A stretch of 46,637 nucleotides of DNA from Gemmatimonadota bacterium. Its GTDB lineage: Bacteria > Desulfobacterota > Deferrimicrobia > Deferrimicrobiales > Deferrimicrobiaceae. The stretch lies in assembly GCA_050257455.1 (NCBI GenBank), contig JBLMWX010000024.1:1-46637 (forward strand), read 5' to 3'. Under the pieces are notes generated by a model, which saw nothing but the letters and a program-made list of their open reading frames with translations, was not told the origin of the DNA and ran no database searches. Positions 1 to 19,808 of this stretch are shown here, one piece after another (the stretch's first letter is position 1; each line of letters starts with the position of its first letter). Both the position numbers and the translations under genes were made by a program.

Positions 1-898
1 CCAGAAACTCCTCGTGGTCCGACACGCCGAAGACGAACTCGTCCAGGTACGCGCGCATCTGCGCGTCCGTCCGGATCGCGTTCAGCATGTCGACGTGCGC
101 GAGGTCGATCTCGTACCGCGCCGGCATCGACCCGGGGTACGCCCCGAACGGGGCGTGGACCACCCCGTCCACGAGAAAATAGGGGATCGTCGTGCGCATC
201 GGGTCCTTTCGGAACTCGTCGGGCTCGACGATCTCCTCCGCCGAGACGATCACGCGGTGCGACGCCATGGCCGCCTCGAGCGCGAACAGGTTCGTGCCGA
301 AGATCCGCGCGTCGCCGTGGACGTCCGCCTGGTGCACGTGGATGAGCGCGACGTCCGGGTTCAGCGCCGGCACGAGGCACACGGGATCCCCCGTGTACGG
401 GTCGTCGATGACCCGCGCCGCCGAGACCGTCAGGTTGTCGGTGCCCAGGAGATCCCGGGTCGGCAGGAACGGCACGCCCCGCGCGCCTGCCAGCAACCGG
501 AGGGCCAGGCCCCCGTTCGTCCACTCGTAGACCTTGACGCGGCCCTCGCAGACCGCCTGGCCGATGTAGCTCCCATAGCCGAGGAACCCGACGTCGATCC
601 GCGTGGCGCAGCCGGCGCCGACCAGGAGCGACGACTCGTGGAGCGTGAACTCGGCGCCGATCCAGAGGTCCTTCCTGCGCTGCCGGATGATTTCCCGGAC
701 GAGCGCCTGGGGCCCGCGGGTGAGGCTCGAGAAGTCGTAGACGATGTAGTCGCCGTCCGAGACCAGCGATGCGACGGCATCCCTCGCCGAAAGGAGCTTC
801 GACTCCGGCCGGCGGCTCTTCCTGTCGCGGACGAAGCGGCGGAAGGCGTCGGGGTGCTCGAACCGGTATTCGACGTTCCCCTCCCTGCGGATCGTCAT
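1..898 (-). CDS. Family I CoA-transferase subunit A, glutaconate CoA-transferase (GctA)-like; 3' end runs off the window
   Basis: Absent from the ORF track because it has no stop in the window. Translated by hand from ATG 898 (ATGA overlap with the meaB stop, GGAGGAGG RBS): MTIRREG...LVSDGDYI...RGPQALVREIIRQ...GARGVPFLPTRDLLGTD...DPYTGDPVCLVPALNPDVALIHVHQADVHGDA...VIVSAEEIV...VDGVVHAPFGAYP, typical of GctA-type subunits. Confidence 0.85.
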   Translation of the reverse strand, partial: MTIRREGNVEYRFEHPDAFRRFVRDRKSRRPESKLLSARDAVASLVSDGDYIVYDFSSLTRGPQALVREIIRQRRKDLWIGAEFTLHESSLLVGAGCATRIDVGFLGYGSYIGQAVCEGRVKVYEWTNGGLALRLLAGARGVPFLPTRDLLGTDNLTVSAARVIDDPYTGDPVCLVPALNPDVALIHVHQADVHGDARIFGTNLFALEAAMASHRVIVSAEEIVEPDEFRKDPMRTTIPYFLVDGVVHAPFGAYPGSMPARYEIDLAHVDMLNAIRTDAQMRAYLDEFVFGVSDHEEFL

Positions 899-1917
899 AC
901 CCTCCTCCTCCGGCGCCGCGCCGGCGGGCGGGCCCGCTCCTCGTTCATCAGGTGGAACGCGAACCTGTGGTCGACCACCTTTTCGACGATCGAGTACGGA
1001 TCCCGCTTCTTCCGGGCGATGTCGGCGAGAATCGGCTCGAGAAGGCCGTGGACGTCGAGGTCGCCGATCGCCTTCTCGAGGAGTTTCTTCTTCAGGATCT
1101 CGAGGAGCTCCACCCGGGCCTTCCCCGCCTGGTACCGGGAGAGGTTGTCCGCGCGGTAGACGTAGCCGCGGTGCTTCCCCACCTCCTCGAGAAGTTCATC
1201 GACCCCGGTCCCCGCCTGCGCGACCGTCGAGACGACGGGGGGGACCCAACGCCCTTCCTCGTAGACGTTCATCGAGATCATTGTCTCGATCTCGCGGCGG
1301 GTCTTGTCCGCTCCCTCGCGGTCGGACTTGTTGACCACGAAGACGTCGGCGATCTCCAGGATCCCGGCCTTCATCGCCTGGATGTCGTCGCCGAGTCCGG
1401 GGACGACGACGACGACGTTCGTGTGGGCGACCTTGACGATCTCGACCTCGTCCTGGCCGACGCCGACCGTCTCGATAATGACGACGTCCTTGCCCATCGC
1501 GTCCATCACGTTGACGATGTCGATCGTCGACTTGGAGAGGCCGCCCAGGTGTCCGCGGGTCGCGAGGCTCCTGATGAAGACGCCCTCGTCGAGAGCGTGT
1601 TTCGACATGCGGATCCGGTCCCCGAGGATCGCGCCGCCGGAAAACGGGCTCGTCGGGTCGATGGCGACGATCCCGACCGTCTTCCCCTCGGCCCGGAGCC
1701 GCTCGGTGATGCAGTCGACGAGGGTGGACTTTCCCGCCCCGGGGGCTCCGGTGACCCCGAGGATGTACGCCCGGCCGGTATGCCTGTACAGGGACTTGAG
1801 GATCCGGTTCGCGGCCGGGATCTCGTCGTCGAGGTCGCGCATCAGGCGGGCCGCGGCGCGCACGTCGCCGGACAGCACCTCCCTCGCTCCCGCCGACCGC
1901 CCTCCCATCGCGCGCAC
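895..1917 (-). CDS. meaB: MeaB/ArgK G-protein chaperone of B12 acyl-CoA mutase
   Basis: Motifs GVTGAPGAGKST, AIDPTSPFSGGAILGDRIRM, ETVGVGQDE, NKSD. Start is GTG 1917 or ATG 1908. Confidence 0.93.
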   Translation of the reverse strand: MRAMGGRSAGAREVLSGDVRAAARLMRDLDDEIPAANRILKSLYRHTGRAYILGVTGAPGAGKSTLVDCITERLRAEGKTVGIVAIDPTSPFSGGAILGDRIRMSKHALDEGVFIRSLATRGHLGGLSKSTIDIVNVMDAMGKDVVIIETVGVGQDEVEIVKVAHTNVVVVVPGLGDDIQAMKAGILEIADVFVVNKSDREGADKTRREIETMISMNVYEEGRWVPPVVSTVAQAGTGVDELLEEVGKHRGYVYRADNLSRYQAGKARVELLEILKKKLLEKAIGDLDVHGLLEPILADIARKKRDPYSIVEKVVDHRFAFHLMNEERARPPARRRRRRV

Positions 1918-1924
1918 CCCCGTG

Positions 1925-3067
1925 CTAGCCCCGGATCAGCCGCCGCGCGATGATCATGCGCTGGACCTCGGAGGTTCCCTCGCCGATCTCGCACAGCTTC
2001 GCGTCCCGCATGTACCGCTCCACGGGGTACTCGCGCGTGTAACCGTACCCCCCGAAGATCTGGACGGCCTTGATCGTCCCGCGCATCGCGGCCTCCGAGG
2101 CGAACAGCTTCGCCATGGCGGCCTCCTGGACGAACGGCCTCCCCGCGTCCTTGAGCCAGGCGGCCCGCAGGGTCAGAAGCTCCGACGCCTCGAGCTCCGT
2201 GCAGGTATCCGCGATCATCCACCGGATCGCCTGGAAGGAGGCGATCGGCTGGCCGAACTGGCGCCGCTCCTTCGCGTACGCGATCGCCTCGTCGATCGCC
2301 CCGAAGCCGATCCCGACCGAGAGCGCGGCGATCGAGATGCGTCCCCCCGCGAGGTTGCTCATGGTGTCCCGGAACCCGCGGTTGACCTCGCCGACGACGT
2401 TTGCGGGCTTGACCTCGAGGTCCTCGAAGACGAGCTCGGCCGTATCCGAGGAGCGCATCCCCAGCTTGTGGAGCTTCTTCCCGACGGAGAGGCCCCGGGT
2501 TCCCCCTTCGACGAGGAAGGCCGTCACGCCGTCCCGCCCCTTCTCCCTGTCGGTGACGGCGAGGATCACGTAGACGCCCGCCACGCTCCCCTGGGTGATG
2601 AACATCTTGCTCCCGTTGAGGATCCAGCGGTCCCCCCGCCACTCCGCCTTCGTCCTCATGGCGAGGGAATCGGAGCCCGAGCCGGGCTCGGTCAGCGCCC
2701 AGGCGCCGAGCATCCGCCCCGAGGCGAGTTCCGGGAGGTACTTCCGACGGATCGCCTCGGAGCCGAAGGCCAGGATATGGGCGGTGCACAGGGAGTTGTG
2801 GGAGGCGACGGTGAGCCCGAGCGACCCGTCCCCCTTCCCGATCTCCTCGACCGCGAGGGCGTAGCTGATCGTGTCCATCCCCGATCCCCCGTACTCCTCG
2901 GGGACCATCACCCCCATGAGACCCAGCTCGCCGAGGGCCGCGACCGTGTCGGACGGGAATTCGCCCGCCTCGTCCCACAGGCGCGCCTTCGGCTTCACCT
3001 CGTTCTCGACGAACGACCGGACCGTGTCCCGCAGGGCGACGTGCTCGGGTGCCAGCTCGAACCGCAT
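1925..3067 (-). CDS. Acyl-CoA dehydrogenase, probable isovaleryl-CoA (beta-branched) type
   Basis: Start MRFELAPEH at 3067. Motifs [26 protein letters not shown]. The C-terminal motif is EIGEGTSE (Gly in place of the usual Tyr). Confidence 0.9.
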
Positions 3068-3078
3068 CGCGCCGCTCG

Positions 3079-3636
3079 TCAGGCCGGGACGAAGTAGACG
3101 TCGGTCGGCTTGAGCTGGGAGTTGCGCCGGAATTTCGCCTTGATCTCCATCCCGATCCGGATGTCCTCCGGTCTCTCGACCCCGATCAGCCGCGCCAGCA
3201 GCAGCGTGTCCGCGCCGTCGAACTCGACGAGCACCAGGTGGAACGGCGTCTCCTCGAGGAATTCCTCGCTGCCGTAGTAGCACGTCGTGAACGTGTGGAC
3301 CCGCCCCTCCTTCGGGAGCTCGACCCACTCGTTCTCTCCCCCGCAGAAGGTGCAGTGGAGCCGCGGGGTCGCCCAGGTGTAGTCGCACTTCGGGCACCGG
3401 GTCCCGAGGATCTTCCCGTTGGCCAGCCCGGCGAAGAAGGGCGAATCCTGGCCGTAGGAGTGGATGTACTCGACGGAGTACGGGTGCTTGATCACGATCG
3501 GGGACATCCCCTTGAGCGCGCCGAGGTCCTTCGGGAACGGGACGTTGAACACCGTCGTGCCCGTCATCAGCTCGGGCAGCTTCGCGTTCCGGTCGAACCG
3601 CGGCCCCCCGGTTCCTTTCTTCGCGGCGTTCGCCAT
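3079..3636 (-). CDS. DUF35 family Zn-ribbon/OB-fold acyl-CoA-binding protein
   Basis: Start MANAAKK at 3636. [27 protein letters not shown] zinc ribbon, then a GRVHTFT...[11 protein letters not shown]...[11 protein letters not shown] fold. Directly downstream of the thiolase-fold gene. Confidence 0.88.
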
Positions 3637-3638
3637 GG

Positions 3639-4925
3639 CTACCACCCCCGTTCCATGATCGACACGGTGACGTAGGTCCCCGTGCCGGCGTGGCTGTGGA
3701 TGAGACCCCGGTTCGCCCGTTTGAGCTGGAGCTCGCCGGACCCGAAGTGCTTCTTGATGCTCCCCTGGATCTGCCAGAAGGCGAACACCGCCTGCATGAG
3801 GCCGGTCGCCCCGACGGGGTGGCCGCACGCGATCAGGCCGCCCGAGGGGTTGACGGGAATGGTCCCCTTCTTCCTGAGCTTGAGCCCGTAGTCGATCTGC
3901 GGCATGAAGGGGTGCCCTTCCTCGACGAACCTGCCGCCGTCGCCGTACTTGCAGAGGGCCAGGTCCTCGTACGTCTGGATCTCCGACGACGTGTACGCGT
4001 CGTGGAGCTCGACGAAGTCGATCTCCCTGATGGGATCCCTGATCCCGGCCATCTTGTACGCCTGGAGACCCGCGCTGCGCCCGGCCCGGAACGAGTGCAC
4101 GCCGGGGTACTTGAGGTTCCTGTAGTCGCTCTCCTTCTCGTTCGGGGCGAGGATCACCTTCCCGTGCGGCCGGTCGGCCATCCGCATCATGTCGGTGCCG
4201 GTGCCCACCCCCGTGATCTTCACCGGCCGGTCCGTCAGCCGGAACGCCGTCTCCTCGTCGGCCAGGATGCAGACCGCCGCGCCGTCCGACATCACGCAGA
4301 TGTCGAGGAGCGTGAGCGGGTACGCGACCATCTCGGCGTTGCGCACGTCGGCGATGGTGAGCTTGCGCCGCTTCTGGGCGTACGGGTTGTCGTAGGCGTT
4401 CATGTGGTTCTTGACCGACACCATCGCCAGCTGCTCGACGGTCGTCCCGAACTCGTGCATGTGCCGGTTCACCATCATCGCGTAGTAGCCGGAGTAGAAG
4501 CCGCCCACGGGATAGTCGAAGCTCACGTCCGACGCCAGCGCGATGAACTCGTTTCCCTTCCACGTCTGCACGTGCGACATCGTCTCGAACCCGAACGCGA
4601 CGCAGCAGTTCATCCGGCCCGACGCGACCGCCTCCCAGCCCGCCTGGAAGCACAGGCCGCCCGTGGCGCCGCCGCCCTCGATCCGCTTGTTGGGCTTGGG
4701 GCAGAGCCCGAGGTAGTCGGTGGCCATGATCCCCGCCATGAGCTGGCGGGTGAAATGGTCCGAGAAGTACGACCCGACGGAGCCGTCGATCATCGCCGGC
4801 TTGAGCTTCGGCACGTCGCCGAGCGCGTAGTCGAACGCCTCCTTCACGATCTTCTGGAAGGTCGCGTCGGGGCGCGCCTTCCGGAACTTGCTGATCCCCC
4901 CCGATACCATGTAGACCGGTCTCAC
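3639..4925 (-). CDS. SCP2/archaeal-type thiolase-fold protein lacking catalytic cysteines
   Basis: Thiolase motifs [43 protein letters not shown]. The nucleophile loop reads EGGGATGG (no Cys) and the C-terminal loop reads HSHAGTG (no Cys). Confidence 0.9.
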
Positions 4926-4953
4926 GGGATTCCCCCTTCGGTCGGAATTGTTG

Positions 4954-5403
4954 TCATGCCCTCGGCCGGACCCGCTCGCCGACGTAGTCGATGATCGCCT
5001 GGAGCGGGGTCCCCGGCGTGAACACGCGGTCGACGCCTCTCTTCCGGAGGAACGGAATGTCGTCGTCCGGGATGATCCCGCCGCCGAAGACGACCACGTC
5101 GCCCATCTTCTTCTCCTTCAGCAGCTCGACGACCCGCGGGAAGAGGTAGTTGTGGGCGCCCGAGAGGATCGACAGCCCGATCGCGTCGACGTCCTCCTGG
5201 ACCGCCGCGTTGACGATCATTTCCGGGGTCTGGTGGAGCCCCGTGTAGATGACCTCGAATCCCGCGTCCCGAAGGGCCCGGGCGATGATCTTCGCCCCCC
5301 GGTCGTGCCCGTCGAGCCCGGGCTTCCCCACGAGGATCCGGACCTTTCGCGCGACATGCCTCGCCTTCGTGCCCGACTTGCTCCGCGCCTGTGCGCTCGC
5401 CAT
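4954..5403 (-). CDS. Cobalamin-binding small subunit of acyl-CoA mutase (IcmB/MCM C-terminal-like)
   Basis: B12-binding motif [12 protein letters not shown], plus GLSILSGAH and GGGIIP. Confidence 0.93.
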
Positions 5404-5424
5404 GGATCGCCCCCCTGTCTTTGG

Positions 5425-7107
5425 TCAGAAAATCGCCGGATCCGCGTACGTGCCCATCGTCTCGCGGAACGCGTCGCAGATCTCCCCGAGGGTGACGTAT
5501 TCCCTCACCGCCTCGAGGATGACCGGCATGAGGTTCGTCTTCGGCGAGAGCGACGCATCCTTGAGCGCGTCGACGCACGCGGCGACCTTCCTCGCGTCCC
5601 TCTTCCGCCTGACCTCCCGCGTGCGCTCCACCTGCTTCCGCTCCACCTCGGGATCGATCTTGAGGAGCGGGATCCGGGGCTCCTCCGTCATCTGGTAGCA
5701 GTTGACCCCGACGATCTTCTTGTCCCCCGTCTCGAGGAGGCGCTGGTAGCGGAACGCCGCGTCCGCGACCTCGCGCTGCGGATAGCCGCGCTTGATCGCG
5801 TTGACCATCCCCCCCATCTCGTCGATCTTCCCGATGTACGCCATCGCCTTCCGTTCCATCTCGTCGGTCAGGGCCTCGACGCAGAAGGAGCCCCCGAGCG
5901 GGTCGATGGTGTTGGCCACGCCCGTCTCGTCGGCGAGGATCTGCTGGGTCCGCAGGGCGACCGTCACGGCCTGCTCCGTGGGCAACGCGAGGGTCTCGTC
6001 CATCGAATTCGTGTGGAGCGACTGGGTCCCGCCGAGCACCGCCATCAGCCCCTGGAGGGCGACGCGGACGACGTTGTTGATCGGCTGCTGGGCGGTGAGC
6101 GTGCACCCCGCGGTCTGGGTGTGGAACCTGAGCTTCCAGGATGCCTCGTCCTTCGCCTTGAACCGCTCCCGCATGATGCGGGCCCACATGCGCCGCGCGG
6201 CGCGGTACTTGGCGATCTCCTCGAAGAAGTCGATGTGCGCGTTGAAGAAGTAGGACAGCCGGGGCGCGAACCTGTCCACGGGGATCCCGGCGTCGATTCC
6301 CGCCTGGACGTACGCGATTCCGTCCGCGATGGTGAACGCGAGCTCCTGGACGGCCGTGGATCCCGCCTCGCGGATGTGGTATCCGCTGATGCTGATCGTG
6401 TTCCACTTCGGGACGTGGTCGGCGCAGTACGCGAGCGTGTCGACGATGATCCGCATCGACGGCTCCGGCGGGAAGATCCAGGAATGCTGCGCGATGTACT
6501 CCTTCAGGATGTCGTTCTGGATGGTCCCGCCGATCCTGTGGGACGAGACGCCCTGCTTCTCGGCCACGGCGATGTACATCGCCAGCAGGACCGCGGCCGG
6601 CGAGTTGATCGTCATCGACGTCGTGACCTTGTCGAGGGGAATCCCGTCGAACAGGATCTCCATGTCCTTGAGGGAGTCGACCGCGACGCCGCACTGTCCC
6701 ACCTCGCCCCGCGACCGGGCGTGGTCCGAATCGTAGCCCATGAGCGTCGGGAAATGGAAGGCCACCGACAGGCCCGTCTGGCCCTGGCCCAGCAGGTAAT
6801 GGTACCGGCGGTTCGTGTCCTCGGCCGACCCGAACCCGGCGAACTGGCGCATCGTCCACAGCCGCCCGCGGTACATGGACGGCTGAACGCCGCGCGTATA
6901 CGGGTACTCCCCCGGGAACCCGAGGTCCCTCGCGTAATCGAGGCCGGCGACGTCGCCGGGGCCGTACAGGTCCCGGACTTCCTCGTCGGAGACGGTCGAG
7001 AATCGCGCTCTCAGCTCGGGCGAGCGGGCCAGCAGGGGCGACAGCGTGCCCCCTTCCCACCGCGTCCTCCCGTCGGCGACTGCCTTGAGCTTCCTCTTGT
7101 CGTACAC
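5425..7107 (-). CDS. B12-dependent acyl-CoA mutase large subunit, isobutyryl-CoA mutase-like
   Basis: GTG start at 7107 after a GGGGAGG RBS. Motifs [47 protein letters not shown]. Specificity positions are F89 and Q207. Confidence 0.92.
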
Positions 7108-7148: not shown

Positions 7149-7688
7149 TCAACGCTCGATGCCGACGCGGGCGTCCACGCCCCTGGCGTAATAGTGCTTG
7201 ATCTCCCGCATTTCGGTGACCAGGTCGGCGATCTCCAGGAACGCCGCGGGCGCCCCCCGCCCCGTGAGGATGATCTCCATCCCGTCGGGCTTCCGGCGCA
7301 GGACGTCGAGGACCTCCCCGGGGTCGAGGAGGCCGTAGTCGGCGGCGCAGTTGATCTCGTCGAGGACCACGAGGTCGGCCTTCCCGCCCAGGATCACGGC
7401 GCTGGCCAGCTCCCACCCCTCCCGCGCCAGGCGGACATCCTCGGGATCGGGATCCTTCCTGTTGACGAAGGTGTCGCGGCCGGCCTGGTGGATCTCCACG
7501 TAGGGCGACAGCATCGCGACGCCCTTGAGCTCCCCGTAGTCGATCCAGCCCTTCATGAACTGGATGATCACGGTCCGCAGCCCGTGGCCCGCCGCCCGGA
7601 CCGCCAGCCCCAGCGACGCGGTGGTCTTCCCCTTGCCGTTTCCCGTGTAGACCTGGATGTATCCCTTGCCGAGAGGCGCCCCGCCCAT
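7149..7688 (-). CDS. cobO: ATP:cob(I)alamin adenosyltransferase, CobO/BtuR/CobA type
   Basis: Motifs [52 protein letters not shown]. Confidence 0.92.
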
Positions 7689-7693: not shown

Positions 7694-8827
7694 TCACCGC
7701 AGCAGGTCCCGTGCGATGACGACCCGCTGGATCTCCGAGGTTCCCTCGTAGATGGTACTCACCCTGATGTCCCTCAAGTGCCGCTCCACGGGATAATCCC
7801 GGACGTACCCGTATCCCCCGAGGACCTGGACCGCCTTGTGGCACGCCCGGTTCGCCGCCTCGGTCGCGAAGACCTTGGCCATCGACGCCTCGCGCGTGAA
7901 GGGCCGCCGGTTTTCCTTGAGCGCGGCGGCCCGGAAGGCGAGGAGCTGGGCCGCGTCCAGCTCGGTGGCCGCGTCGGCGAGCATCCACTGGATCGCCTGG
8001 AACTCGGCGATCGGCCGGCCGAACTGTTTCCGCTCCCGGGCGTAGGCGACGGCCGCCTCGAGGGCGGCGCCCGCGATCCCGATCGCCTGGAAGGAAATGC
8101 CGATCCGCCCGCCGTCCAGCGCGGACATGGCGATGCGGAACCCCTCGCCGGGCGCGCCGAGCATGTTCTCCTTCGGGACGCGGCAGTCGTCGAACGCCAT
8201 CGAGACCGTGTCCGAGCCCTTGAGCCCCATCTTGTGCTCGGGCCTGCCCGTCGCAAACCCCGGGGTCCCGGGCTCGACGAGGAAGGCGGTGATCTCCTTC
8301 TTCGGCTCTTTCCGGGTGACCGCCATCACGATCGTCACGCACGCGCGGGAGCCGTTCGTGATGAAGGCCTTGCTCCCGTTCAGGACGAACGAGTCGCCGT
8401 CGGGAACCGCGGTCGTGGAGATCCCGAACGCGTCGGACCCGGCGGACGGCTCGGTCAGGCCGAAGGCGCCCGCCCCTTTCCCGGAGGCGAGGGCGGGCAG
8501 GAACTTCCTGCGCTGCTCCTCGGTCCCGAACCGGAAGATCCCCTCCCCCACCATGTTCGTCACGGCCATCCCCACGACGGTCGAGGCGCACGCGGCCGCG
8601 ACTTCCCGGACGGCGATCCCGTAGGAAACGGGTCCGGCGTCGGATCCCCCGTACTCGGCCGGGTAGAGCATCCCGAGAAGCCCCAGTTCCGCGAGCTTGC
8701 GCATGTTCTCTTCCGGGTAGCGGGAGCTCTCGTCGATCTCGGCCGCCCTCGGCGCGAACTCGTTCCGCGCGAGGGACCGGACCATCGCCTCGACCTGGAG
8801 CTGCTCGTCGGTGAACGCGAACCGCAC
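7694..8827 (-). CDS. Acyl-CoA dehydrogenase (short/branched chain)
   Basis: Motifs [40 protein letters not shown] start. Confidence 0.92.
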
Positions 8828-10815: not shown

Positions 10816-11673
10816 TTACGCCGTTTCGTAGGCGTAGAAGCCCCGCCCGCTCTTCTTTCCGAGGTACCCCGCCTCGACCTGCTTCTTCAGGAGCGGGCAC
10901 GGCCTGTACTTCGGGTCGCCCAGCCCCTCGTGGAGCACCTTCATGACCTCGAGGCAGGTGTCCAGCCCGATCAGGTCCGCGAGGGCCAGGGGACCCATCG
11001 GGTGGTTCGCGCCCATCCGCATCGCGGCGTCGATGTCCTCCGCCCTCGCCACCCCTTCCATCAGGGCGTAGATCGCCTCGTTGATCATCGGCATCAGGAT
11101 CCGGTTGACGGCGAAGCCCGGATAGTCGTTCGCCGGCACCGGCTCCTTGCCGAGGCTGCGGGAGAGGGCCACCGTCGCGTCGAACGTCTCCCCGGAGGTC
11201 TGCAGGCCCCGGATGATCTCGACGAGCTTCATCAGGGGTACGGGGTTCATGAAGTGCATCCCGATCACCCTGTCGGGGCGCCTCGTGACGGAGGCGATCT
11301 TCGTGATCGAGATCGAGGACGTGTTCGTGGCCAGGATCCGTCCCGGCGGCACGATCCCGTCGAGGGAGCGGAAGATCGACAGCTTGAGCTCCTCCCGCTC
11401 GGTGGCGGCCTCGACCGCGAAGTCGCAGGCGGAAAACGCCCCGAGGTCCGCCGTCGTCGCCAGGTTGCCCGCCATCCGTTCCCGGTCCGCAACCGTGATC
11501 TTCTCCTTGCGGACCAGGATGTCGAGCCCCTTCTCGATCCCGGCCCGGGACTTCGCGAGGATCGCGTCGGACACGTCGTTCAGCACCACCTTGTATCCGT
11601 TCGTGAGCGCGACCTGCGCGATCCCGCTCCCCATCTGTCCCCCGCCGACGACGCCGATCGTCCTGATGTCCAT
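10816..11673 (-). CDS. hbd: 3-hydroxybutyryl-CoA dehydrogenase
   Basis: Motifs [38 protein letters not shown]. Confidence 0.94.
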
Positions 11674-11701: not shown

Positions 11702-12880
<1,179 letters not shown>

Positions 12881-12918: not shown

Positions 12919-13317
12919 TCAGGTTTCCTGCAGGAGCTTCCCCCGCAGCCGGGTCTGGTAGTCGTGGATCTCCTTCTTCAGCGCGACGAGCTGGTTGATG
13001 CGGTCGTCGATCTGCGCGGCCCGTTCGTCGAGGATCGCGACCAGCTTCGGGATGACCTCCCTGTTGTTTCTCTGGTTCCGATAGATCTTCTCGAGCGCCA
13101 CCATTTCGGCAAGCGAGAGTCCCAGGACCTTGAGTTTGTTGATGAATCTGAGGCGGCGCACGTCGTGGTCCGTGTAGACGCGCTTGCCGTTCTCGATCCG
13201 GCGGATGCTGTGCAGCAGGCCGATCTCCTCGTAGTAGCGGATCGTCCTCTGCGAGAGGTCGACCATCCGGCTGAGCTCGCCGATCGGGTATGTGACGGGC
13301 GCTTCGGGGGATCCCAT
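12919..13317 (-). CDS. MerR family transcriptional regulator, LiuR-like
   Basis: MerR HTH YPIGELSRMVDLSQRTIRYYEEIGLL...RVY followed by a coiled coil. No Cys, so not a Cys-ligand metal sensor. Start is ATG 13317 or GTG 13326. Confidence 0.88.
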   Translation of the reverse strand: MGSPEAPVTYPIGELSRMVDLSQRTIRYYEEIGLLHSIRRIENGKRVYTDHDVRRLRFINKLKVLGLSLAEMVALEKIYRNQRNNREVIPKLVAILDERAAQIDDRINQLVALKKEIHDYQTRLRGKLLQET

Positions 13318-13319
13318 GT

Positions 13320-13343
13320 CTGCCACCTTACGTTAACTGGCAG
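13320..13343 (-). promoter_or_regulatory. Putative LiuR-like operator part-site inside a leader hairpin
   Basis: Plus strand CTTACGTTAAC (13327-13337) resembles part of the LiuR consensus TTTACGTWWACGTAAA. It is flanked by CTGCCA/TGGCAG inverted arms. Confidence 0.4.
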
Positions 13344-13345
13344 AG

Positions 13346-13374
13346 AGATTACCCGACACCCCGCCGCGCGTCAA
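13346..13374 (-). promoter_or_regulatory. Sigma70-type promoter of the acyl-CoA operon
   Basis: TTGACG (13374-13369), 17 nt spacer, TAATCT (13351-13346). Confidence 0.7.
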
Positions 13375-13423
13375 GATGTTTTTGACGCCCCGTCATTGCC
13401 GGCTGTCCGCGTCGCTATCGGCC

Positions 13424-14179
13424 CTATTTCGCGATCTTCTTCAGCAGCTCCGCGGCCCTCTTCTTCTCCAGGCGCTGTTCCGGGATGGCGTCGGGGAACG
13501 CGTCGTCCGGCGCCGCCAGGGCGGCCTCGAGCTCGGCGCGCGCGAGGTCGTTGCGTCCGTCCTTCACGTAGGCCTCCGCCAGCAGGAAGCGGTTCCCGGC
13601 ATAGATCGGGTACGCCGCGACCGCCTTTTTCCCGTATTCGACGGCCTTGGAAACGCTTCCGCCCAGGAGCCCCGGGAGCCTCGCGTAGTACGCGCAGAAG
13701 AAGCGGTCGGGCCCGCGGTAGAAATAGTCCGGCTGGATCGTCTCGGTCTTCCGGTTCAGCTCCTCGACCTTCCCGATCCCGAGAAGGCTCCGGAACTTCC
13801 CCTTGAGGTTGTTTTCCCGGGCGAGGTTCGCCGCCTCGAAGAAGTAGCCGCCGGGCCGGTCCGGGGCCGCCTCGGCCGCCCGCCGGCCGTAGTCGCGTCC
13901 CTTGACGAAGTGCGCGATGGCGCCGCTCTTGTCGACCGTCTCGAGGTTCTGCCCGATCCAGTAGTGGAGCCGCGAGAGCCGCAGCAGGACGTCGTAATCG
14001 TTCGGGCTCTCCTTGAGCAGCGCCTCGTAGGCGGCAACCGCCTCGTTCGCCTTTCCCGGATCCTCGCGCGCAGCCCACAGGGCGTTCGCCCTCTCCCGCG
14101 GGGCCTCGCCCGCGACCGCGATCGCGGCCGGCGCGGCAAGAACCAGACACGCGAGCGAAACGGCCAGAGACCTTTTCAT
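13424..14179 (-). CDS. Secreted TPR-like helical repeat protein (TatT/T-component-like)
   Basis: Start MKRSLAVSLACLVLAAPAAIAVA looks like a signal peptide; GGGGAGG RBS. Helical repeats such as AVAAYEALLKESPNDY and LLAEAYVKDGRNDLARAELEAAL. Confidence 0.7.
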   Translation of the reverse strand: MKRSLAVSLACLVLAAPAAIAVAGEAPRERANALWAAREDPGKANEAVAAYEALLKESPNDYDVLLRLSRLHYWIGQNLETVDKSGAIAHFVKGRDYGRRAAEAAPDRPGGYFFEAANLARENNLKGKFRSLLGIGKVEELNRKTETIQPDYFYRGPDRFFCAYYARLPGLLGGSVSKAVEYGKKAVAAYPIYAGNRFLLAEAYVKDGRNDLARAELEAALAAPDDAFPDAIPEQRLEKKRAAELLKKIAK

Positions 14180-14190
14180 GGAGTCCTCCC

Positions 14191-15396
14191 CTATCCGCCT
14201 TCGATCGTTTCGAGAAACGCCTCGAGACGGGTCCGCCACGCCCCCTCGGCGAAGTCCCTCTCGTCCGCCATGTCGCCCTCGATCACAATGCACGGAACGC
14301 CGTCCCGTTTCAAGCGGGCGGCGATCTCCTCCTGCCCGAACGAATACGGCTTGCAGCTCCGGTTCGAATGGAACACGACCCCCCGCGCCGAAAGCGATGC
14401 GGCGAGGGTCCGAATGACCGCCTCCCTGTGCCGGAGCCCCGAGTTGAGCCACACGCGGGCGTAGGCGTCCGCGAGCGCGTCGATCGGGTCGCCCGACTCC
14501 GCCGGCGTCTCGGTCCAGGCGTGCGTGTAGGTGGCGCCGACGAGGACGGCGTCGCGCGCCGCCAGAAAGGCGCTCAGGGCCTTGAGCTGGTGCCACACCG
14601 GGAGATTGTCCCACAGCAGCCGGGTGCGCTCCGGCTCCACCGCGCCCTCCCCGCGCGACGCGCGTGCCCGAAGCTCGTCGCGCAGCCCGGCGTAGAACGC
14701 CACCGCCTCCCGCGTTCCCCGCATCGTCACGATCGGGCCCATCAGGATGAACTGGTCCGCGGCCGAGGCGGGAGCCGGCCGCGCGGCGTTCGCGGCGAGG
14801 CATGCGTCCCACAGCGCCGAGGCCTCCCGGGACAGGGCCACGATCTCGCGGAACCGCTCTTCGCGCCATTCCCTCCCCGTCGCCCGCGACAGTTCCCCGG
14901 GGAGCCCGCGGAACTGCGCGCGCACGTACGCGCGGGCCGCCCGTTCCTCGTCGCCGTGACGGAAGGGCATGTCGAGGAGTATCAGGGGGACGCCGTGGAA
15001 CCGGGCGAGCCCCTCGTACCACTTGACCACGGTCCGGCAGATATTGTTCGCGCAGACGAGGAAGTCCGGCGGAGGCAGCCCCCCGATCGGGCTCCGGTCC
15101 GGCGCGGACCGCGCGCCCCGATCGATTCTCCAGTACGAGCAGAGCTCGCGCCGGTAACCCTGTTCCTCGGCCGCGCGGCACAGGGCGCCCCCGGCGCGCG
15201 CCACGCCGCAGACCGCGCCGTGGTTCTCGGGATAAACCGGGACGACGTCCATCGCGAGCAGGAACTCCACGGGAGCGCCGCTCGTCACGTAGGCGACGCG
15301 CCTCCCCTCGTCCCGGGCCAGCCATCCCGCCTGGAAATGGCGCAGCATCAGCTCCTTCATGCGGGCGGTCGCCGACAGGCGCTCCCGAAGCGCCAT
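14191..15396 (-). CDS. 2-hydroxyacyl-CoA dehydratase family subunit (HgdA/HadB/BzdO-like)
   Basis: Start MALRERL at 15396. Motifs VPVYPENH, ELCSY, GGLPPPDFLVCANNIC, WDNLP, HSNRSCKP, IEGDMADER, TRLEAFLE; three FeS Cys present. Confidence 0.88.
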   Translation of the reverse strand: MALRERLSATARMKELMLRHFQAGWLARDEGRRVAYVTSGAPVEFLLAMDVVPVYPENHGAVCGVARAGGALCRAAEEQGYRRELCSYWRIDRGARSAPDRSPIGGLPPPDFLVCANNICRTVVKWYEGLARFHGVPLILLDMPFRHGDEERAARAYVRAQFRGLPGELSRATGREWREERFREIVALSREASALWDACLAANAARPAPASAADQFILMGPIVTMRGTREAVAFYAGLRDELRARASRGEGAVEPERTRLLWDNLPVWHQLKALSAFLAARDAVLVGATYTHAWTETPAESGDPIDALADAYARVWLNSGLRHREAVIRTLAASLSARGVVFHSNRSCKPYSFGQEEIAARLKRDGVPCIVIEGDMADERDFAEGAWRTRLEAFLETIEGG

Positions 15397-15398
15397 TT

Positions 15399-16529
15399 CT
15401 ACTCCCCCATCTCGACGAACGCCCCGATGCGGACGGCGAGGGCCGCCGCCCCGGGGGCGCCGGGATCGACGTCGACACCGAGGAAGGGAACGCCCCGGCG
15501 CTTCGCCTCCAGGGCGATGTCGGGCGCGTCGCCGGCCTCCGGCTCGCACTGGCGGACCCGCACCATGAGGATCCGGTCCGCCCCGCACGCCGACGCGTGG
15601 CGGAACAGGGAGTCGATCCGGCTCCGTCCCGCCCAGTGGAGCGTCGCGCACGGCCCCCGGGACAGGTGCCTCCGGACGAGCGCCAGGGCCGCGTCCCCGT
15701 CCTCCTGCGCCGCCCCCTCGAAGTACCGGCGTCCCCGGCCCAGGTCGTTTCCGACCACGGCGGCGCCGGCGCCGTCCAGCGCGGCCGCGACGTCGTCCGT
15801 CGCCAGCATGCCCGTGAGAAAGACCCGGGCGCGCGGCGTCCCGGCGCGTCCTCCCGGGCGCTCCAGGACCGCGCGGACCAGCTCGGTGTGCGTCTCCCTC
15901 GGCAGGAGGGAGCCGGCGCGCGCCAGGAGAAGGTACCCCGCCGCGCTCAGGACGCCCGGCGAGTCCGCCATCCGCTCCTCGAGCCGCGCGAACAGCCGCC
16001 GGTTGACGTTGTACGCCGCGATCGCCTTCGCGAGGGATCCCTCCCGCACCAGCCGCCCCGAAACCGTCCCCGACCATTCGACGAAGGCCTCGATCCGGTC
16101 GAGCAGGTACTCGGTTGACCCGGCGAGGTCCCCGGACAGCGGGAAGACGAGGGGGAACAGCGGGCGCGCCTCGCCGCCCGCCTTCAGGACCTCGACGGCG
16201 TTCTGGATCGAGTCGCAGGTCGAGGGGACCGCCCACGCATCGAGGGCGTCCCAAAGGCCGCCGCGGACGGCCGCGAAGACGCCGCGGACGATGCCGCACA
16301 GGAACGGCGGCACGTTGGCGGGGGGCGGATTCGCGAACTCGTCGCCCCAGAGGGTGACCGGGAGCATCCCGGCCGCGTGGAGGACCTCCTCCGGAAGGTA
16401 GAGGGGGAAGCATCCGACGGCCTTGCGCCCGGAGAGGGCCTTCCAGCGGCGCACGGCTCCCGCCGGGTCGTCGCGGACCGCGGCGGCGTACCGGAGCGCC
16501 TCGTCGGCGGAAAGCGGCGTCGCGGTCAT
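15399..16529 (-). CDS. 2-hydroxyacyl-CoA dehydratase family subunit (HgdB/HadC/BzdN-like)
   Basis: Motifs GCFPLYLPEEVLHAAGMLP, PPFLCG, PSTCD, VVGNDL, QCEP, RIGAFVEM. Confidence 0.85.
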   Translation of the reverse strand: MTATPLSADEALRYAAAVRDDPAGAVRRWKALSGRKAVGCFPLYLPEEVLHAAGMLPVTLWGDEFANPPPANVPPFLCGIVRGVFAAVRGGLWDALDAWAVPSTCDSIQNAVEVLKAGGEARPLFPLVFPLSGDLAGSTEYLLDRIEAFVEWSGTVSGRLVREGSLAKAIAAYNVNRRLFARLEERMADSPGVLSAAGYLLLARAGSLLPRETHTELVRAVLERPGGRAGTPRARVFLTGMLATDDVAAALDGAGAAVVGNDLGRGRRYFEGAAQEDGDAALALVRRHLSRGPCATLHWAGRSRIDSLFRHASACGADRILMVRVRQCEPEAGDAPDIALEAKRRGVPFLGVDVDPGAPGAAALAVRIGAFVEMGE

Positions 16530-17182
16530 CGGCCCTGGTAGATGACCGCGAGGATCAGCGCCTCCTTCTCTTCGGTCGAGTGGACGTGGTGCGGAATCGT
16601 CGAGTTGTAGTAGATGCAGTCTCCCTCGGCGAGGACGTCGGAATAGTTGTCGAGGAAGACCTCGACCTTGCCCGAGAGGACGAAGAGGAACTCCTCTCCC
16701 TCGTGGGAGTTGCGCGCCACGTTCCGGTCCCGGAGGGGGGTCAGCCGGACGAGAAAGGGCTCCATCCTGCGCCCCGCCTTCCCCGCGCCGAGCGCCTCGT
16801 ACGTGTACGACGATTTCCCGCCCTCCTTGAGCCCGACCCGCGAGACGGTCGTCCGGTCCTCCTTGCGGACGATCGAGAACTCCCGCTCCTCCTTCCCGCC
16901 GATGAACGCCGAAACGGTGGTGTCGAGCGCGTTCGCGATCTTCACCAGCGTCCCGAGCGGCGGCGACGTCATCCGGTTCTCGATCTGCGTGAGAAGGGCG
17001 GTCGAGAACCCGGTCTTCTCGGCGAGCTGCTGGAGCGAGACGCCGCGGCCCTCGCGGAACCTGTGGATGTGGTCCCCGACCTGGACCTCGGGCGACCCCG
17101 CGGCCGGCCCCCAGTCCCCCGACTCCTCGGCGATCTTTTCCAGAAGGTCGTCCATCGATTCGTCACGCGTGATTTCTGGCAA
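16526..17182 (-). CDS. XRE-family HTH regulator with C-terminal cupin domain
   Basis: HTH SLQQLAEKTGFSTALLTQIEN and cupin SHEGEEFLFVLSG...GDCIYYNSTIPH. Start is TTG 17182 or ATG 17155. Confidence 0.9.
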   Translation of the reverse strand: MPEITRDESMDDLLEKIAEESGDWGPAAGSPEVQVGDHIHRFREGRGVSLQQLAEKTGFSTALLTQIENRMTSPPLGTLVKIANALDTTVSAFIGGKEEREFSIVRKEDRTTVSRVGLKEGGKSSYTYEALGAGKAGRRMEPFLVRLTPLRDRNVARNSHEGEEFLFVLSGKVEVFLDNYSDVLAEGDCIYYNSTIPHHVHSTEEKEALILAVIYQGR

Positions 17183-17714
17183 AGGACTCTCCCTCCTGCA
17201 AGGCTTTGACGTTCAGCGGGATGAACTTCTCGTATTTCCTCGAAACCACCTTCGGGATGCAGTCCACGACGGTCTTCATCGCGACGACCCCTGCCCGCGC
17301 CACGTACGCCCCGAGGGCCACCATCGACGCCAGCTGCTGGCTTCCCACCACCTCCCGCGCGATGTCGTTGGCCGGGATGGCGAGGAGCCGGATGTCCGAC
17401 CGGCTCACCCGCGCGGGGTCGACGAGGGACGCGTTGACGATGAGGTCCCCGTCCTTCCTGACGAGCGGCAGGTACCTGTCGAGCGACGGCCCGTTCATGA
17501 TGACGCACGCCTCGGGGAAACCGACGACCGGCGATCCGATCTCGTCGTCCGAGACGACGACCGTGCAGTTGGCGGTCCCCCCGCGCATCTCGACCCCGTA
17601 GGCGGGGAAGTAGGTGACGTTCCTCCCCTCCTCCATCGCCGCCAGGGACAGGAGGTTCCCGATCATGAGGATCCCCTGCCCGCCGAAGCCGGCCATGATC
17701 ACGTCGCGCGTCAT
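17163..17714 (-). CDS. 2-oxoacid:ferredoxin oxidoreductase gamma subunit
   Basis: Start [15 protein letters not shown]; motif [12 protein letters not shown]. Confidence 0.92.
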
Positions 17715-18490
17715 ACGAAGTCCGCCTGCTTCCGTTCCTTGTAGGTCCCGAGCGGGAAATACTCCGACATCTCCCCGAGCACCCGCTTCTGCGCGTCCGT
17801 CGGCTTCATTCCCCAGTTGGTCGGGCACGTCGAGAGGAACTCCACGATCGAGAATCCCATCTCCCGGATCTGCATCTCGAACGCCTTCTTCAGGGCCTCC
17901 TTCGCCCGGCGGATCTGGCCGGGCGTGGAGGTCGCCACCCGGGCCGAGAACGCGGTCCCCTCCAGCGTGGCGAGCAGCTCCGCCATCCGGATGGGGTAGC
18001 CGTCGTTCCTGAATTCCCGTCCGTACGGGGAGGTCGAGGTCTTCTGTCCCAGCATCGTGGTGGGGGCCATCTGCCCGCCCGTCATGCCGTAGGTGGTGTT
18101 GTTGACGAAGACGACGGTGATGTTCTCTCCCCGGTTTGCCGCGTGGATGATCTCGGAGGTCCCGATGGCGGCCAGGTCGCCGTCGCCCTGGTACGTGAAC
18201 ACGAACCTGTCGGGCTGGGCCCTCTTGACGCCGGTGGCCACGGCCGGCGCGCGGCCGTGCGGCGCCTCCGCCACGTCGACGTCGATGTAGTCGTAGAGGA
18301 AGACGGCGCAGCCGACGCACGCGACGCCGACCGTCCGCTCGCGAAGATCGAAATGGTCGATCGTCTCGGCGAGGATCCGGTGGGCGATCCCGTGGTGGCA
18401 TCCCGGGCAGAAGTGGGAGCGCACGTCGACGAGGCTGCGGGGCCTCCCGAATACCCGTTTCGCGAAGCGATCCCCCGGGTCCGCGTTCAT
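17711..18490 (-). CDS. 2-oxoacid:ferredoxin oxidoreductase beta (TPP-binding) subunit, Vor-like
   Basis: Motifs [29 protein letters not shown]...NN, CPTNW. Confidence 0.92.
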
Positions 18491-19584
18491 GGCATCTTCA
18501 CCGCCGCGAGGCCGATCTGCTCCGCCAGTTTCCCGATCTCGCGGAGGATCTCCTCCGGGGTCGGCATCGCGCACGGCTTGCCCAGGAACCGGATCCTGTC
18601 GTGGTGGGGCGTGCTCGCCCGCACGTCGTCGACCATCTGCCCCGTGTTCATCTCGACGACGAGCACCGCGTCCGCGTCGCGGGCGACCTCGTCGACCGGA
18701 ACGGCCGGAAACGGGAACAGGGTGATCGGGCGGAGCATCCCGACGGGAATGCCGTCGCGCCGGGCCCACTGGATGGCCGTCTTGCTCACGCGGGCCGCGG
18801 TGCCGAACGCGACGACGGCGATCCGGGCCCCCTCCATCCGGTAACGTTCGACCCGGACCTCCTCCTCGCGGATCCGCCGGTACTTCGCGTGAAGCTTCCA
18901 GTTGTGAACCTCGATCGCGTCGTCCTTGAGATAAAGCGACTTGACGTGCTGCCGGGGCCGGCCGGCGCACCCCGTGAGGGCCCAGGGCTTGTCCTGCGGG
19001 ACAGTGGGAACGTACGGCGTCGCGACGAACGGCTCCTTCATCTGCCCGACGATGGCGTCTCCCAGGATCATGACCGGGTTGCGATACTTGTCCGCGAGGT
19101 CGAACGCCAGCATCGTGAGCTCGTACATCTCCTGCACCGAATGGGGGGCGAGCACCGGCATCTTGTAGCCGCCGTGGCCGCCGCACTTGACCGCCTGGAG
19201 GTAGTCCCCCTGCGACGGGGCGATCCCGCCGAGACCCGGTCCGGACCGCGAAATGTTGACGATGACGGCCGGCAGCTCGGAACCCGCCATGTAGGAAAGT
19301 CCCTCCTGCATGAGCGAGATGCCGGGCCCCGAGGAGGAGGTCATGACCCGCTTCCCCGACGCCGACGTCCCGAGGATGAAGTTGATGGTGGCGACCTCGC
19401 TCTCGGCCTGGAGGAAGGTTCCCCCGAGGGCGGGCAGATGGGCCGCCATGTATTCGGGGATGTCGTTCTGCGGCGTGATCGGATAGCCGTAGTAATAGCG
19501 GCATCCGGCGGCGATCGCGCCGACGCAGATCGCCTCGTTCCCCTTCATGAACTCCCGGCGCGGGCCGGTTTCCGACCGCGTCAT
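18487..19584 (-). CDS. 2-oxoacid:ferredoxin oxidoreductase alpha subunit, 2-oxoisovalerate (Vor)-like
   Basis: Motifs [47 protein letters not shown]. Confidence 0.9.
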
Positions 19585-19808
19585 CGCCAGACCTCGATGC
19601 AGACGTCCGGGCAGCACTCGGCGCAGATCGCGCACCCGGTGCAGTCCTCCGGCCTCGCGAAGACCGCCGCCGCGTATCCCTGGGCGTTGATCGCGCTCCC
19701 GATCTCGATGCACCGCTTCGGGCAGGCGGCCACGCAGAGCTCGCACGCCTTGCACCGGTCCGCCGCGATCGCGATGCGGCCCGTCGCCTTCGCCGCGTTG
19801 ACGCTCAT
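19581..19808 (-). CDS. 2x[4Fe-4S] ferredoxin, oxidoreductase delta subunit
   Basis: Motifs [12 protein letters not shown] and [12 protein letters not shown]. Confidence 0.92.

Follow-up and report, generated by a model that had tools for sequence, protein, structure and literature searches.

A predicted isobutyryl-CoA mutase and β-oxidation operon beside a 2-oxoacid:ferredoxin oxidoreductase in a member of the Deferrimicrobiaceae

Introduction

How would a bacterium in which the standard Liu and Mms enzymes are not recognised process the branched acyl units derived from valine, leucine and isoleucine? This question is raised by a block of 22 minus-strand genes (positions 2 to 19808) on contig JBLMWX010000024.1 of assembly GCA_050257455.1, deposited as a Gemmatimonadota bacterium and placed by GTDB in the Deferrimicrobiaceae. 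The window, i.e., the whole stretch of DNA analysed here, is this entire contig (46,637 nucleotides, 46.6 kb; C24 in our numbering), and the assembly comprises 2.4 Mb in 230 contigs, with 94% completeness and 1.3% contamination. The block most likely represents two neighbouring transcription units of Candidatus Deferrimicrobiaceae (MBNT15), kin of a soil and groundwater iron-reducer. The first encodes a 2-oxoacid:ferredoxin oxidoreductase (VOR); the second, headed by merR, encodes β-oxidation enzymes, a split B12-dependent acyl-CoA mutase and a thiolase-fold protein without both catalytic cysteines, here named ThlL, with its DUF35 partner. A sequence-only reading of the block had proposed that branched 2-oxoacids become acyl-CoAs, that α-branches are removed by B12-dependent skeleton rearrangement, and that the β-branch of leucine is possibly removed by aldol cleavage. 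Judging from gene content, specificity residues and gene order, the two units together seem, on balance, to oxidise short acyl units, branched or straight, including those derived from valine, via isobutyryl-CoA mutase (ICM) and β-oxidation.

Ca. Deferrimicrobium is reported to oxidise amino acids and fatty acids and to have 11 liv clusters, a branched-chain 2-oxoacid dehydrogenase (BCKDH), and a pathway composed of propionyl-CoA carboxylase (PCC), epimerase and methylmalonyl-CoA mutase (MCM) (PMC9386147, in part); the passages of that paper on 'mutase' do not mention this cluster, and its supplementary tables may list the genes. In Syntrophothermus, an ICM cluster of two subunits, an adenosyltransferase and MeaB isomerises isobutyrate to butyrate before β-oxidation (PMC5017805, in part), and S. 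albus has a valine-induced ICM that converts isobutyryl-CoA to butyryl-CoA (PMC8176718, in part).

Results

Specificity residues of the mutase

The mutase is encoded as an IcmA-like large subunit (positions 5425 to 7107; MM_CoA_mutase, 747 bits), with the motifs RQFAGF, YIAQH and SVAFHF, and an IcmB-like B12-binding small subunit (4954 to 5403; TIGR00640, 172 bits), whose DxHxxG motif reads DGHDRG. Two specificity sites have been described in mutases, occupied by Tyr and Arg in MCM (PMC7238569, in part, citing Jost et al. 2015). When aligned with the chains of solved structures, the large subunit of the window exhibited Phe (RQ-F-AGF) at the position of MCM Tyr89 and Gln (YIA-Q-H) at that of MCM Arg207, the human and Propionibacterium MCM chains reading Tyr and Arg; the carboxylate-binding pair of MCM is absent. 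It also carries Phe and Ala where HcmA (PDB 4r3u) reads Ile and Asp, so that neither residue of 2-hydroxyisobutyryl-CoA mutase (HCM) is found. In HCM, the Ile occupies the position of MCM Tyr89, and the Asp, Asp117, is the hydroxyl-binding residue.

For comparison, six curated IcmF sequences were aligned, curated meaning above the NCBI equivalog cut-off of 1500 bits (NF045497), a level reached in 16 of the 121 sampled genomes of the phylum. Phe, Gln and Ala occupied the three positions in the four sequences compared (two of the six, extracted in the wrong frame, were left out), and Gln was present at the second site in all six, as well as in the cluster-linked subunits of relatives (5 out of 5). 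The Nitrospira orthologue of the large subunit has Phe at the first site too. All B12 accessories for an ICM are present: the DGHDRG motif of the small subunit; the G-protein chaperone MeaB (895 to 1908; TIGR00750, 325 bits versus a cut-off of 241), with P-loop and NKxD; and a CobO/BtuR-type ATP:corrinoid adenosyltransferase (7149 to 7688; PF02572, 208 bits; NF004637, 192 bits, above cut-off), with P-loop. The mutase is best named an IcmA/IcmB-type isobutyryl-CoA mutase, an activity predicted from these residues.

The second and only other mutase large subunit of the genome (contig C36, positions 49257 to 50795) is of the Tyr/Arg type and is preceded by genes for an mmdA/PccB-like carboxyltransferase (846 bits), a biotin carboxylase and a biotin carboxyl carrier protein. 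The genome yielded just one mutase-type B12 small subunit and one strong MeaB, and the window encodes them both. The ratio of large to small subunits was 2:1 in four out of the five relatives, as in this genome, and 3:2 in the fifth, and the orphan large subunits of the relatives were all Tyr/Arg. This suggests that one set of small subunit, chaperone and adenosyltransferase may be common to the ICM and MCM large subunits, which, if true, would be an economical, modular arrangement. A PF02310 match was also observed on contig C70, within an open frame of 1151 aa.

Enzymes from 2-oxoisovalerate to acetyl-CoA

The genes were identified by a Pfam scan of 57 and an NCBIfam scan of 23 minus-strand open reading frame (ORF) proteins, with inspection of start codons. 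The make-up of a four-subunit VOR is complete, with the ferredoxin-type delta subunit VorD (19584 to 19808; 75 aa, 2x[4Fe-4S], two CxxCxxCxxxC motifs), the alpha subunit VorA (18487 to 19584; POR_N and PFOR_II), the thiamine pyrophosphate-binding beta subunit VorB (17711 to 18490; TPP_enzyme_C, with the PorB_KorB subfamily below cut-off) and the gamma subunit VorG (17163 to 17714; PF01558 POR). VorA exceeded the cut-off of NF005507 (505.9 bits versus 399), a model that NCBI names '3-methyl-2-oxobutanoate dehydrogenase subunit VorB', and this agrees with the proposal that 2-oxoacids enter the block as branched acyl-CoAs. An in-frame TGA flagged in three VorA matches proved to be the ordinary VorA stop codon.

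Behind merR, Thl (11702 to 12880; Thiolase_N/C; TIGR01930, 434 bits, above cut-off) is a standard acetyl-CoA C-acetyltransferase and Hbd (10816 to 11673; NF004474, 427 bits versus 408) clears the cut-off for 3-hydroxybutyryl-CoA dehydrogenase, followed by the short-chain enoyl-CoA hydratase Crt (10022 to 10804; ECH_1, 249 bits; NF004475, 348 bits, below the cut-off of 394). Among the three acyl-CoA dehydrogenases (ACADs), ACAD1 (8835 to 9977) is of the short-chain or butyryl-CoA dehydrogenase type, its nearest solved relatives being rat and human short-chain acyl-CoA dehydrogenase (451-447 bits) and clostridial Bcd (436 bits). ACAD2 (7694 to 8827; Pfam/NCBIfam) and ACAD3 (1925 to 3067; Pfam) are also of the short-chain type, and all three scored highest against clostridial AcrC/Bcd-type models.

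The last gene of the window encodes the A subunit of a CoA-transferase of the glutaconate-CoA-transferase type (2 to 898; PF01144, with GctA and AibA as top PDB matches), truncated at the contig end. Its B subunit (CoAT-B), on contig C173, matches GctB far better than AibB (1.5e-45 versus 9e-8), and its LFEFG aligns with IVESG of GctB, so that the Glu of VESG, which we take to be the catalytic Glu, is kept. A reading as an AibA/B-type decarboxylase was ruled out on both counts.

A full series of predicted enzymes is encoded that leads from 2-oxoisovalerate through isobutyryl-CoA, butyryl-CoA, crotonyl-CoA, 3-hydroxybutyryl-CoA and acetoacetyl-CoA to two acetyl-CoA. According to the family names, VorDABG would turn branched 2-oxoacids into acyl-CoAs; the split mutase, loaded by CobO and MeaB, would then rearrange isobutyryl-CoA to n-butyryl-CoA, as its specificity residues indicate; and ACAD1, Crt, Hbd and Thl, again by family, would convert butyryl-CoA to two acetyl-CoA. 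The remaining ACADs, with the same Crt, Hbd and Thl, may handle 2-methylbutyryl-CoA, of which the propionyl-CoA would pass to PCC and the Tyr/Arg mutase on C36, and the GctAB-type CoA-transferase may activate or release free acids. The B12 rearrangement of isobutyryl- to n-butyryl-CoA, followed by β-oxidation, had been anticipated from the sequence alone, and both the Phe/Gln/Ala signature and the complete set of butyryl-CoA-oxidising enzymes argue for it.

Conservation and boundaries of the block

To determine how far the block is conserved, ThlL was used as a query on reference genomes; from the 375 relatives detected, 80 loci were retained for comparison. Counts cover only loci with sufficient flank; a Deferrimicrobia-type set comprised 39 loci (ThlL identity of at least 81%) and a distant set 33 loci with more remote ThlL. 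In the Deferrimicrobia-type loci, the neighbours were almost invariably retained: IcmB was adjacent in 37/37, IcmA in 31/32, DUF35 in 35/35, ACAD3 in 32/32, MeaB in 25/25, CoA-transferase in 24/24, and Thl and Hbd in 22/22. The merR gene was kept at the head of the block among relatives. Farther upstream, orthologues of VorA (79-83% identity) stood just ahead of the block in all five long relatives, each preceded by a VorD orthologue (69-77% identical), and the XRE regulator followed VorG in all five.

In Nitrospira, the order is 2-oxoacid dehydrogenase E2, Thl, Hbd, an F/Q mutase, a metallo-β-lactamase (MBL)-fold protein, the small subunit, ThlL, DUF35 and MeaB. Since a member of another phylum joins a 2-oxoacid-decarboxylating enzyme to the mutase, a functional link between the two can be argued, and this is stronger evidence than synteny within the family. 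The core of the cluster is thus kept in Deferrimicrobia-type loci, and mutase, ThlL, DUF35 and MeaB stand together in Nitrospira as well. The MBL-fold hydrolase between the large and small mutase genes of Nitrospira (L070:8701-9606) is YtnP-lactonase-like (212 bits, below cut-off), and another MBL-fold hydrolase heads a PCC-MCM block in an Ignavibacteria locus (L076:3513-4358).

From merR to the CoA-transferase, spacing between genes ranged from a 4-nt overlap to 44 nt, with 97 nt ahead of merR; glpX ends just 16 nt upstream of vorD. The genes are indeed co-oriented, as had been noted, and third-position G+C designates the minus strand for every gene over all 46.6 kb (contig G+C of about 68%); because the whole contig shares this orientation, that of the block is uninformative. 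The possibility that missing catabolic genes lie past position 1 did not hold. Contig C173 starts with the C-terminus of the CoA-transferase A subunit, followed by CoAT-B and a MiaB-like gene, and the relatives have the same order and then a nuclease, a GGDEF protein and a response regulator. As only CoAT-B and unrelated genes are found there, the operon ends at CoAT-B, with no Liu or Mms genes beyond it.

The MerR-family regulator (12919 to 13317; MerR_1 and MerR-DNA-bind) is preceded by a promoter-like site and a conserved 20-bp element (13323 to 13393, minus strand, read by eye): TTGACG, 17 nt and TAATCT are followed by TGCCAGTTAACGTAAGGTGG, an element that extends into the merR ribosome-binding site. 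In relatives, the promoter-like site reads TTGACA and TACNAT. The 20-mer was unchanged in 19 out of the 22 relatives, with one or two mismatches in the other three and variable flanking DNA, and was found once in the genome, even with four mismatches allowed. It is probably a local, putatively autoregulated MerR operator, the regulator being local to the operon, and MerR acting at this single conserved element would govern the genes from merR to the CoA-transferase. A promoter and terminator scan returned no promoter-like site and five terminator-like sites; none of the five was on the coding strand, and shuffled sequences gave more (7.7).

Genes elsewhere in the genome and the fate of leucine

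The sequence-only reading had reported methylcrotonyl-CoA carboxylase (MCC), HMG-CoA lyase, 3-hydroxyisobutyrate dehydrogenase, methylmalonyl-CoA epimerase and electron-transfer flavoprotein (ETF) as not seen in the window, which is correct; the only Carboxyl_trans match there is accD (43368 to 44216). The search was extended to the genome, negatives being scored against curated cut-offs in the 94%-complete, 230-contig assembly. Besides accA and accD, the genome has a single large carboxyltransferase, the PccB-like one on C36, so that no MCC was found. No HMG-CoA lyase reached the curated cut-off, the strong matches to the HMGL family being LeuA and CimA. The best HIBADH score in the genome was 185 versus a cut-off of 292 for MmsB, and the best MMSDH score 261 versus 449 for MmsA. 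This best MMSDH match (261 bits) is an aldehyde dehydrogenase adjoining a 2-oxoacid dehydrogenase E2 gene (C117:4246-6976). The absence of MCC, HMG-CoA lyase, MmsA and MmsB is consequently genome-wide at these cut-offs, but other genes do exist outside the window: one etfBA pair on C133, the PCC and Tyr/Arg mutase genes on C36, and an epimerase candidate on C186 (38% identical to an Ignavibacteria epimerase).

Because neither MCC nor HMG-CoA lyase was found, leucine-derived isovaleryl-CoA would probably not be fully oxidised; in the simplest case it would be released as isovalerate instead, as far as gene content indicates.

A thiolase-fold protein without the catalytic cysteines and its DUF35 partner

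ThlL (3639 to 4925; NF004982, 682 bits versus a cut-off of 695) was 75% identical between Deferrimicrobia and Nitrospira, versus 47-66% for the other proteins of the block, and gave 5695 matches at E <1e-20. Its DUF35 partner (3079 to 3636; zinc ribbon and OB fold, PF12172 and PF01796, CxxC-x10-CxxC), the only DUF35 protein found in the genome, lay directly downstream in all 69 loci with enough flank, with the zinc ribbon intact. The alignment of ThlL with the thiolase of the archaeal HMG-CoA synthase (HMGCS) complex spans the whole protein. At the position of the nucleophilic Cys (AACASG), Gly86 was observed in all 16 aligned sequences, and the acid/base Cys of HDCF is gone, the motif reading HDAY; ELHDAY was present in 80 out of 80 loci. 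The designation 'Cys-less' holds for these two canonical catalytic cysteines and does not hold for the protein as a whole, which keeps other invariant cysteines. In the 16-sequence alignment, ranging from bacteria to Thermoplasmata, the invariant residues were G86, H308-D-A-Y311, C367-G-H369, H410-S-H412 and SYFSDHF. Several of these presumably lie in the loops that build the active site of thiolases. A structure model of ThlL (mean pLDDT 67, below 50 in the active-site loops) was used for fold ranking only and placed 6esq first (TM 0.75, 30% identity), with Sal at rank 31 and Ltp2 at rank 36. Sequence matches agreed, with 162 bits for 6esq versus 58 bits for Ltp2.

The contexts of ThlL outside the family are heterogeneous. 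In the distant set, DUF35 was adjacent in 26/26 loci and a mutase in none (0/27 and 0/25). In Geobacter, ThlL is accompanied by an ACAD and an acetoacetate-CoA ligase (952 bits); in an Ignavibacteria metagenome-assembled genome, by a 3-oxoacid-type CoA-transferase, Thl and ACADs beside PCC-MCM-epimerase; and in Anaerolineales, by Thl-Hbd or a divergent carboxylase. Mevalonate genes were observed at one Chloroflexi locus and an acetate-CoA ligase in Thermoplasmata. Matches in the ESM Atlas carry automatic names only ('propanoyl-CoA C-acyltransferase', 'thiolase C-terminal domain-containing protein'), and a literature text search pairing 'isobutyryl-CoA mutase' with 'DUF35' returned nothing. An archaeal thiolase/HMGCS/DUF35 complex was rejected here, as the genome has no HMG_CoA_synt_C match.

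Thiolase-fold aldolases are known from steroid side-chain degradation, where the motif is YDHF in Ltp2 and YDCY in Sal and its first Tyr acts as the base (PMC12329534, in part). ThlL shares with them the Gly in place of the nucleophilic Cys and the DUF35 partner, which would suit a reading in which the valine/ICM route is supplemented by retro-aldol cleavage of 3-hydroxyisovaleryl-CoA (or HMG-CoA) to acetone (or acetoacetate) and acetyl-CoA, i.e., a carboxylase-free catabolism of leucine. An ACAD adjoins the pair in Deferrimicrobia, in Geobacter and at locus L081, comparable to the ACAD, hydratase and aldolase of steroid side-chain cleavage; acetoacetate-CoA ligase, 3-oxoacid-type CoA-transferases, Thl and Hbd occur near ThlL elsewhere; the invariant His and Cys are predicted in active-site loops; and the genome yielded neither MCC nor HMG-CoA lyase. 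However, HDAY has neither the base Tyr of the aldolases, replaced by His308, nor the Cys of Sal, and ThlL is nearer to true DUF35-dependent thiolases than to Sal or Ltp2. Moreover, the protein is wedged among mutase genes in Nitrospira and Deferrimicrobia with no leucine-specific enzyme adjoining, and all 27 distant loci, of varied context, have no adjacent mutase. We regard this leucine route as unlikely, and the suggestion that the β-branch is removed by aldol cleavage found no direct support.

We conclude that ThlL/DUF35 is a constrained, predicted enzyme of non-thiolytic chemistry around C4-C5 acyl-CoA metabolism. A more specific proposal, to which we give a small chance of being right, is that ThlL (Gly86, HDAY, C367-G-H369, H410-S-H412) and DUF35 form an active, rebuilt site, possibly metal- or His-based, for a non-thiolytic C-C reaction on C4-C5 3-oxo- or 3-hydroxyacyl-CoA, such as the splitting of 3-hydroxyisovaleryl-CoA by retro-aldol chemistry or a reaction like that of HMG-CoA lyase, beside a modular B12 system whose single small subunit and single MeaB would serve both the ICM and the MCM large subunit.

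Accessory dehydratase genes and the remainder of the contig

Between the two units, an XRE-HTH and cupin regulator (16526 to 17155; HTH_3 and Cupin_2) is followed by two HGD-D proteins, one beta-like and HadC-like (15399 to 16529; PF06050, 181 bits), the other alpha-like and HadB-like (14191 to 15396; PF06050, 243 bits), and by a TPR lipoprotein-like protein of 251 aa (13424 to 14179; TPR_19/TAtT) with a signal-peptide-like N-terminus, MKRSLAVSLACL. Both HGD-D subunits are present, but their scores against the HadB model (236 bits versus a cut-off of 750) and the HadC model (136 bits versus 700) give no equivalog-level dehydratase match. No HgdC-type activase was detected in the window by Pfam, and the single genome copy lies on C183. 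At one related locus, a 222-aa ORF between the XRE and MerR genes (L037:629-1297), with about 33% identity to the N-terminal portion of the beta-like protein, replaces the HGD pair and the TPR gene and seems to be what is left of the dehydratase pair after decay. In all five relatives, activases and HGD-D genes are located elsewhere and the rest of the block is kept. The dehydratase pair listed in the cluster is present, but on this comparative evidence it is an accessory insertion outside the conserved core. Every other gene that had been listed was likewise recovered at its place, to which VorD and the TPR gene, both left out of that list, have to be added.

Beyond the block, the contig (1 to 46637) is packed very tightly on one strand with genes of unrelated functions: trp, accD, folC-like, lptD, rml, lepA, lepB, pyr, car, recG, an aminotransferase, hom, apgM and glpX. 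Within the pyrimidine run, a radical-SAM ORF of 315 aa (30480 to 31427, minus strand), its third-position G+C high, lies between carA (31455 to 32603) and carB (27235 to about 30470).

Discussion

The observations made from the sequence alone were confirmed, and their interpretation is partly supported: oxidation of valine-derived units via ICM and β-oxidation is the reading that we favour, and several points weigh against it. By overall sequence, the mutase large subunit is nearest to HcmA among solved structures (579 bits, versus 512 for MCM and 285 for IcmF), and its assignment as ICM hangs on three positions. In addition, Deferrimicrobia large subunits carry His (SVAFHF) where Nitrospira, MCM and IcmF have the Asp of AFDxPT, adjoining the position of HCM Asp117. 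The preference of VOR for branched 2-oxoacids is read solely from an NCBIfam subfamily name, and 2-oxoacid dehydrogenase E2 genes are also present in the genome. Synteny within the family is weak evidence, because the unrelated glpX and thioesterase genes are equally conserved upstream of vor in relatives and the whole contig is co-oriented. The genome-wide absences come from a 94%-complete assembly in 230 contigs, which does contain paralogues scoring below the cut-offs (185 and 261 bits). Finally, ThlL/DUF35, which includes the best-conserved protein of the block, falls outside the proposed steps of the pathway.

If flux ran the other way, two acetyl-CoA would be reduced to butyryl-CoA by a clostridial-type thl-hbd-crt-bcd set and isomerised to isobutyryl-CoA by ICM; either the CoA-transferase would then release isobutyrate or butyrate, or VOR would carboxylate isobutyryl-CoA reductively, the 2-oxoisovalerate formed being used to make valine, leucine and pantothenate. 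Every step is reversible in principle, the three ACADs have their best matches in clostridial models, and an isomerisation of butyrate to isobutyrate with an adjacent CoA-transferase has been proposed for chain-elongating Clostridia (PMC7764203, in part). We nevertheless find this direction quite unlikely, considering that the lineage is described as a respiring oxidiser of amino acids and fatty acids with many branched-chain amino acid importers (PMC9386147), that LeuA and CimA provide for ordinary biosynthesis, that the Nitrospira version is tied to an irreversible 2-oxoacid dehydrogenase E2, and that the ACADs have no neighbouring etf genes, unlike a bifurcating Bcd operon.

The block could also be a general operon for butyrate and short-chain β-oxidation, its B12 genes mainly supplying small subunit, MeaB and adenosyltransferase to the propionyl-CoA/methylmalonyl-CoA pathway, with VOR a mere conserved neighbour like glpX. 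The sole small subunit and sole strong MeaB of the genome lie in the window, and the same holds in four out of five relatives; glpX and the thioesterase are equally conserved upstream of vor, and the merR promoter and operator part the two units. Set against these, a dedicated F/Q large subunit stands beside the small one in 31 out of 32 family loci and in Nitrospira, where a branched-chain-type 2-oxoacid dehydrogenase E2 stands in for VOR, which makes this interpretation improbable in our view.

GctAB is the partner of 2-hydroxyglutaryl-CoA dehydratase in Acidaminococcus. A Stickland-like reductive branch, in which 2-oxoacids would be reduced to 2-hydroxyacids, activated by the GctAB-type enzyme, dehydrated by HGD with the C183 activase and reduced by ACADs to saturated branched acids, draws on an HGD-D pair most similar to HadB/HadC, a CoA-transferase that keeps its GctB-type Glu and one HgdC-type activase in the genome, and is very unlikely given HadB/HadC scores far under cut-off, a block with neither 2-hydroxyacid dehydrogenase nor (by Pfam) activase, and a pair shrunk to a 222-aa remnant at L037, with HGD genes and activases elsewhere in relatives whose block is otherwise kept.

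Oxidation through ICM would explain how these peptide and amino-acid oxidisers manage without the Mms branch, and the cluster would mainly add MBNT15/Deferrimicrobia, a widespread and uncultured lineage, to those in which the anaerobic valine/isobutyrate route is known. The route itself is already known from Syntrophothermus and Streptomyces (PMC5017805 and PMC8176718, both in part), and is no new pathway; the new aspects are the build of the operon, the embedded ThlL/DUF35, and a small subunit and MeaB that two large subunits apparently share. ThlL, better conserved than any other protein of the operon, cannot be a thiolase and mismatches the known thiolase-fold aldolases. In databases it goes by the name of acetyl-CoA acetyltransferase, so any pathway reconstruction in which it figures as a thiolase is mistaken, and the C-C chemistry tentatively proposed for it, if true, would provide a carboxylase-free finish of branched-chain catabolism for bacteria and archaea of many phyla.

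By gene content, the closest known system is Slip_0757-0760 of Syntrophothermus lipocalidus, where a split mutase, a cob(I)alamin adenosyltransferase and a MeaB-like chaperone take isobutyryl-CoA through butyryl-CoA to two acetyl-CoA under anaerobic conditions (PMC5017805, in part). Here, unlike in that cluster, the mutase genes share one operon with thl-hbd-crt, three ACADs, a GctAB-type CoA-transferase and the thiolase-like/DUF35 pair, located after a VOR operon and accompanied by a MerR regulator. At the three specificity positions, the mutase resembles Streptomyces IcmA/IcmB and the fused IcmF (NF045497; PDB 4xc6), which share its Phe, Gln and Ala. IcmF, however, is a fusion with a G-protein and matched with 285 bits only, and in Streptomyces the product of ICM feeds polyketide extender units rather than β-oxidation. 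HcmA (PDB 4r3u) is the best overall match (579 bits) and likewise a split enzyme with its own G-protein, but has Ile and Asp where Phe and Ala are found here.

The nearest known analogue of the regulator, by family and setting, is LiuR, a MerR-family repressor of isoleucine, leucine and valine utilisation in Proteobacteria that controls a multi-operon regulon (PMC3223726, in part). Both are encoded with branched-chain acyl-CoA catabolic genes and have a palindromic element upstream, whereas the element described here occurs once in the genome. As for ThlL, its closest solved relative by both sequence and fold is the archaeal acetoacetyl-CoA thiolase (6esq/6et9), whose DUF35 partner likewise carries a Cys4 zinc ribbon. 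It differs from that enzyme by Gly for Cys, HDAY for HDCF, the ThlL-specific C367 and H410-S-H412, and the lack of an HMG-CoA synthase in the genome. Ltp2 and Sal (6ok1, 9myr) share its Gly at the nucleophile position, the DUF35 partner and a nearby ACAD; they are more remote by sequence and fold, and differ from ThlL in the first motif residue, Tyr rather than His, and in the third, His or Cys rather than Ala.

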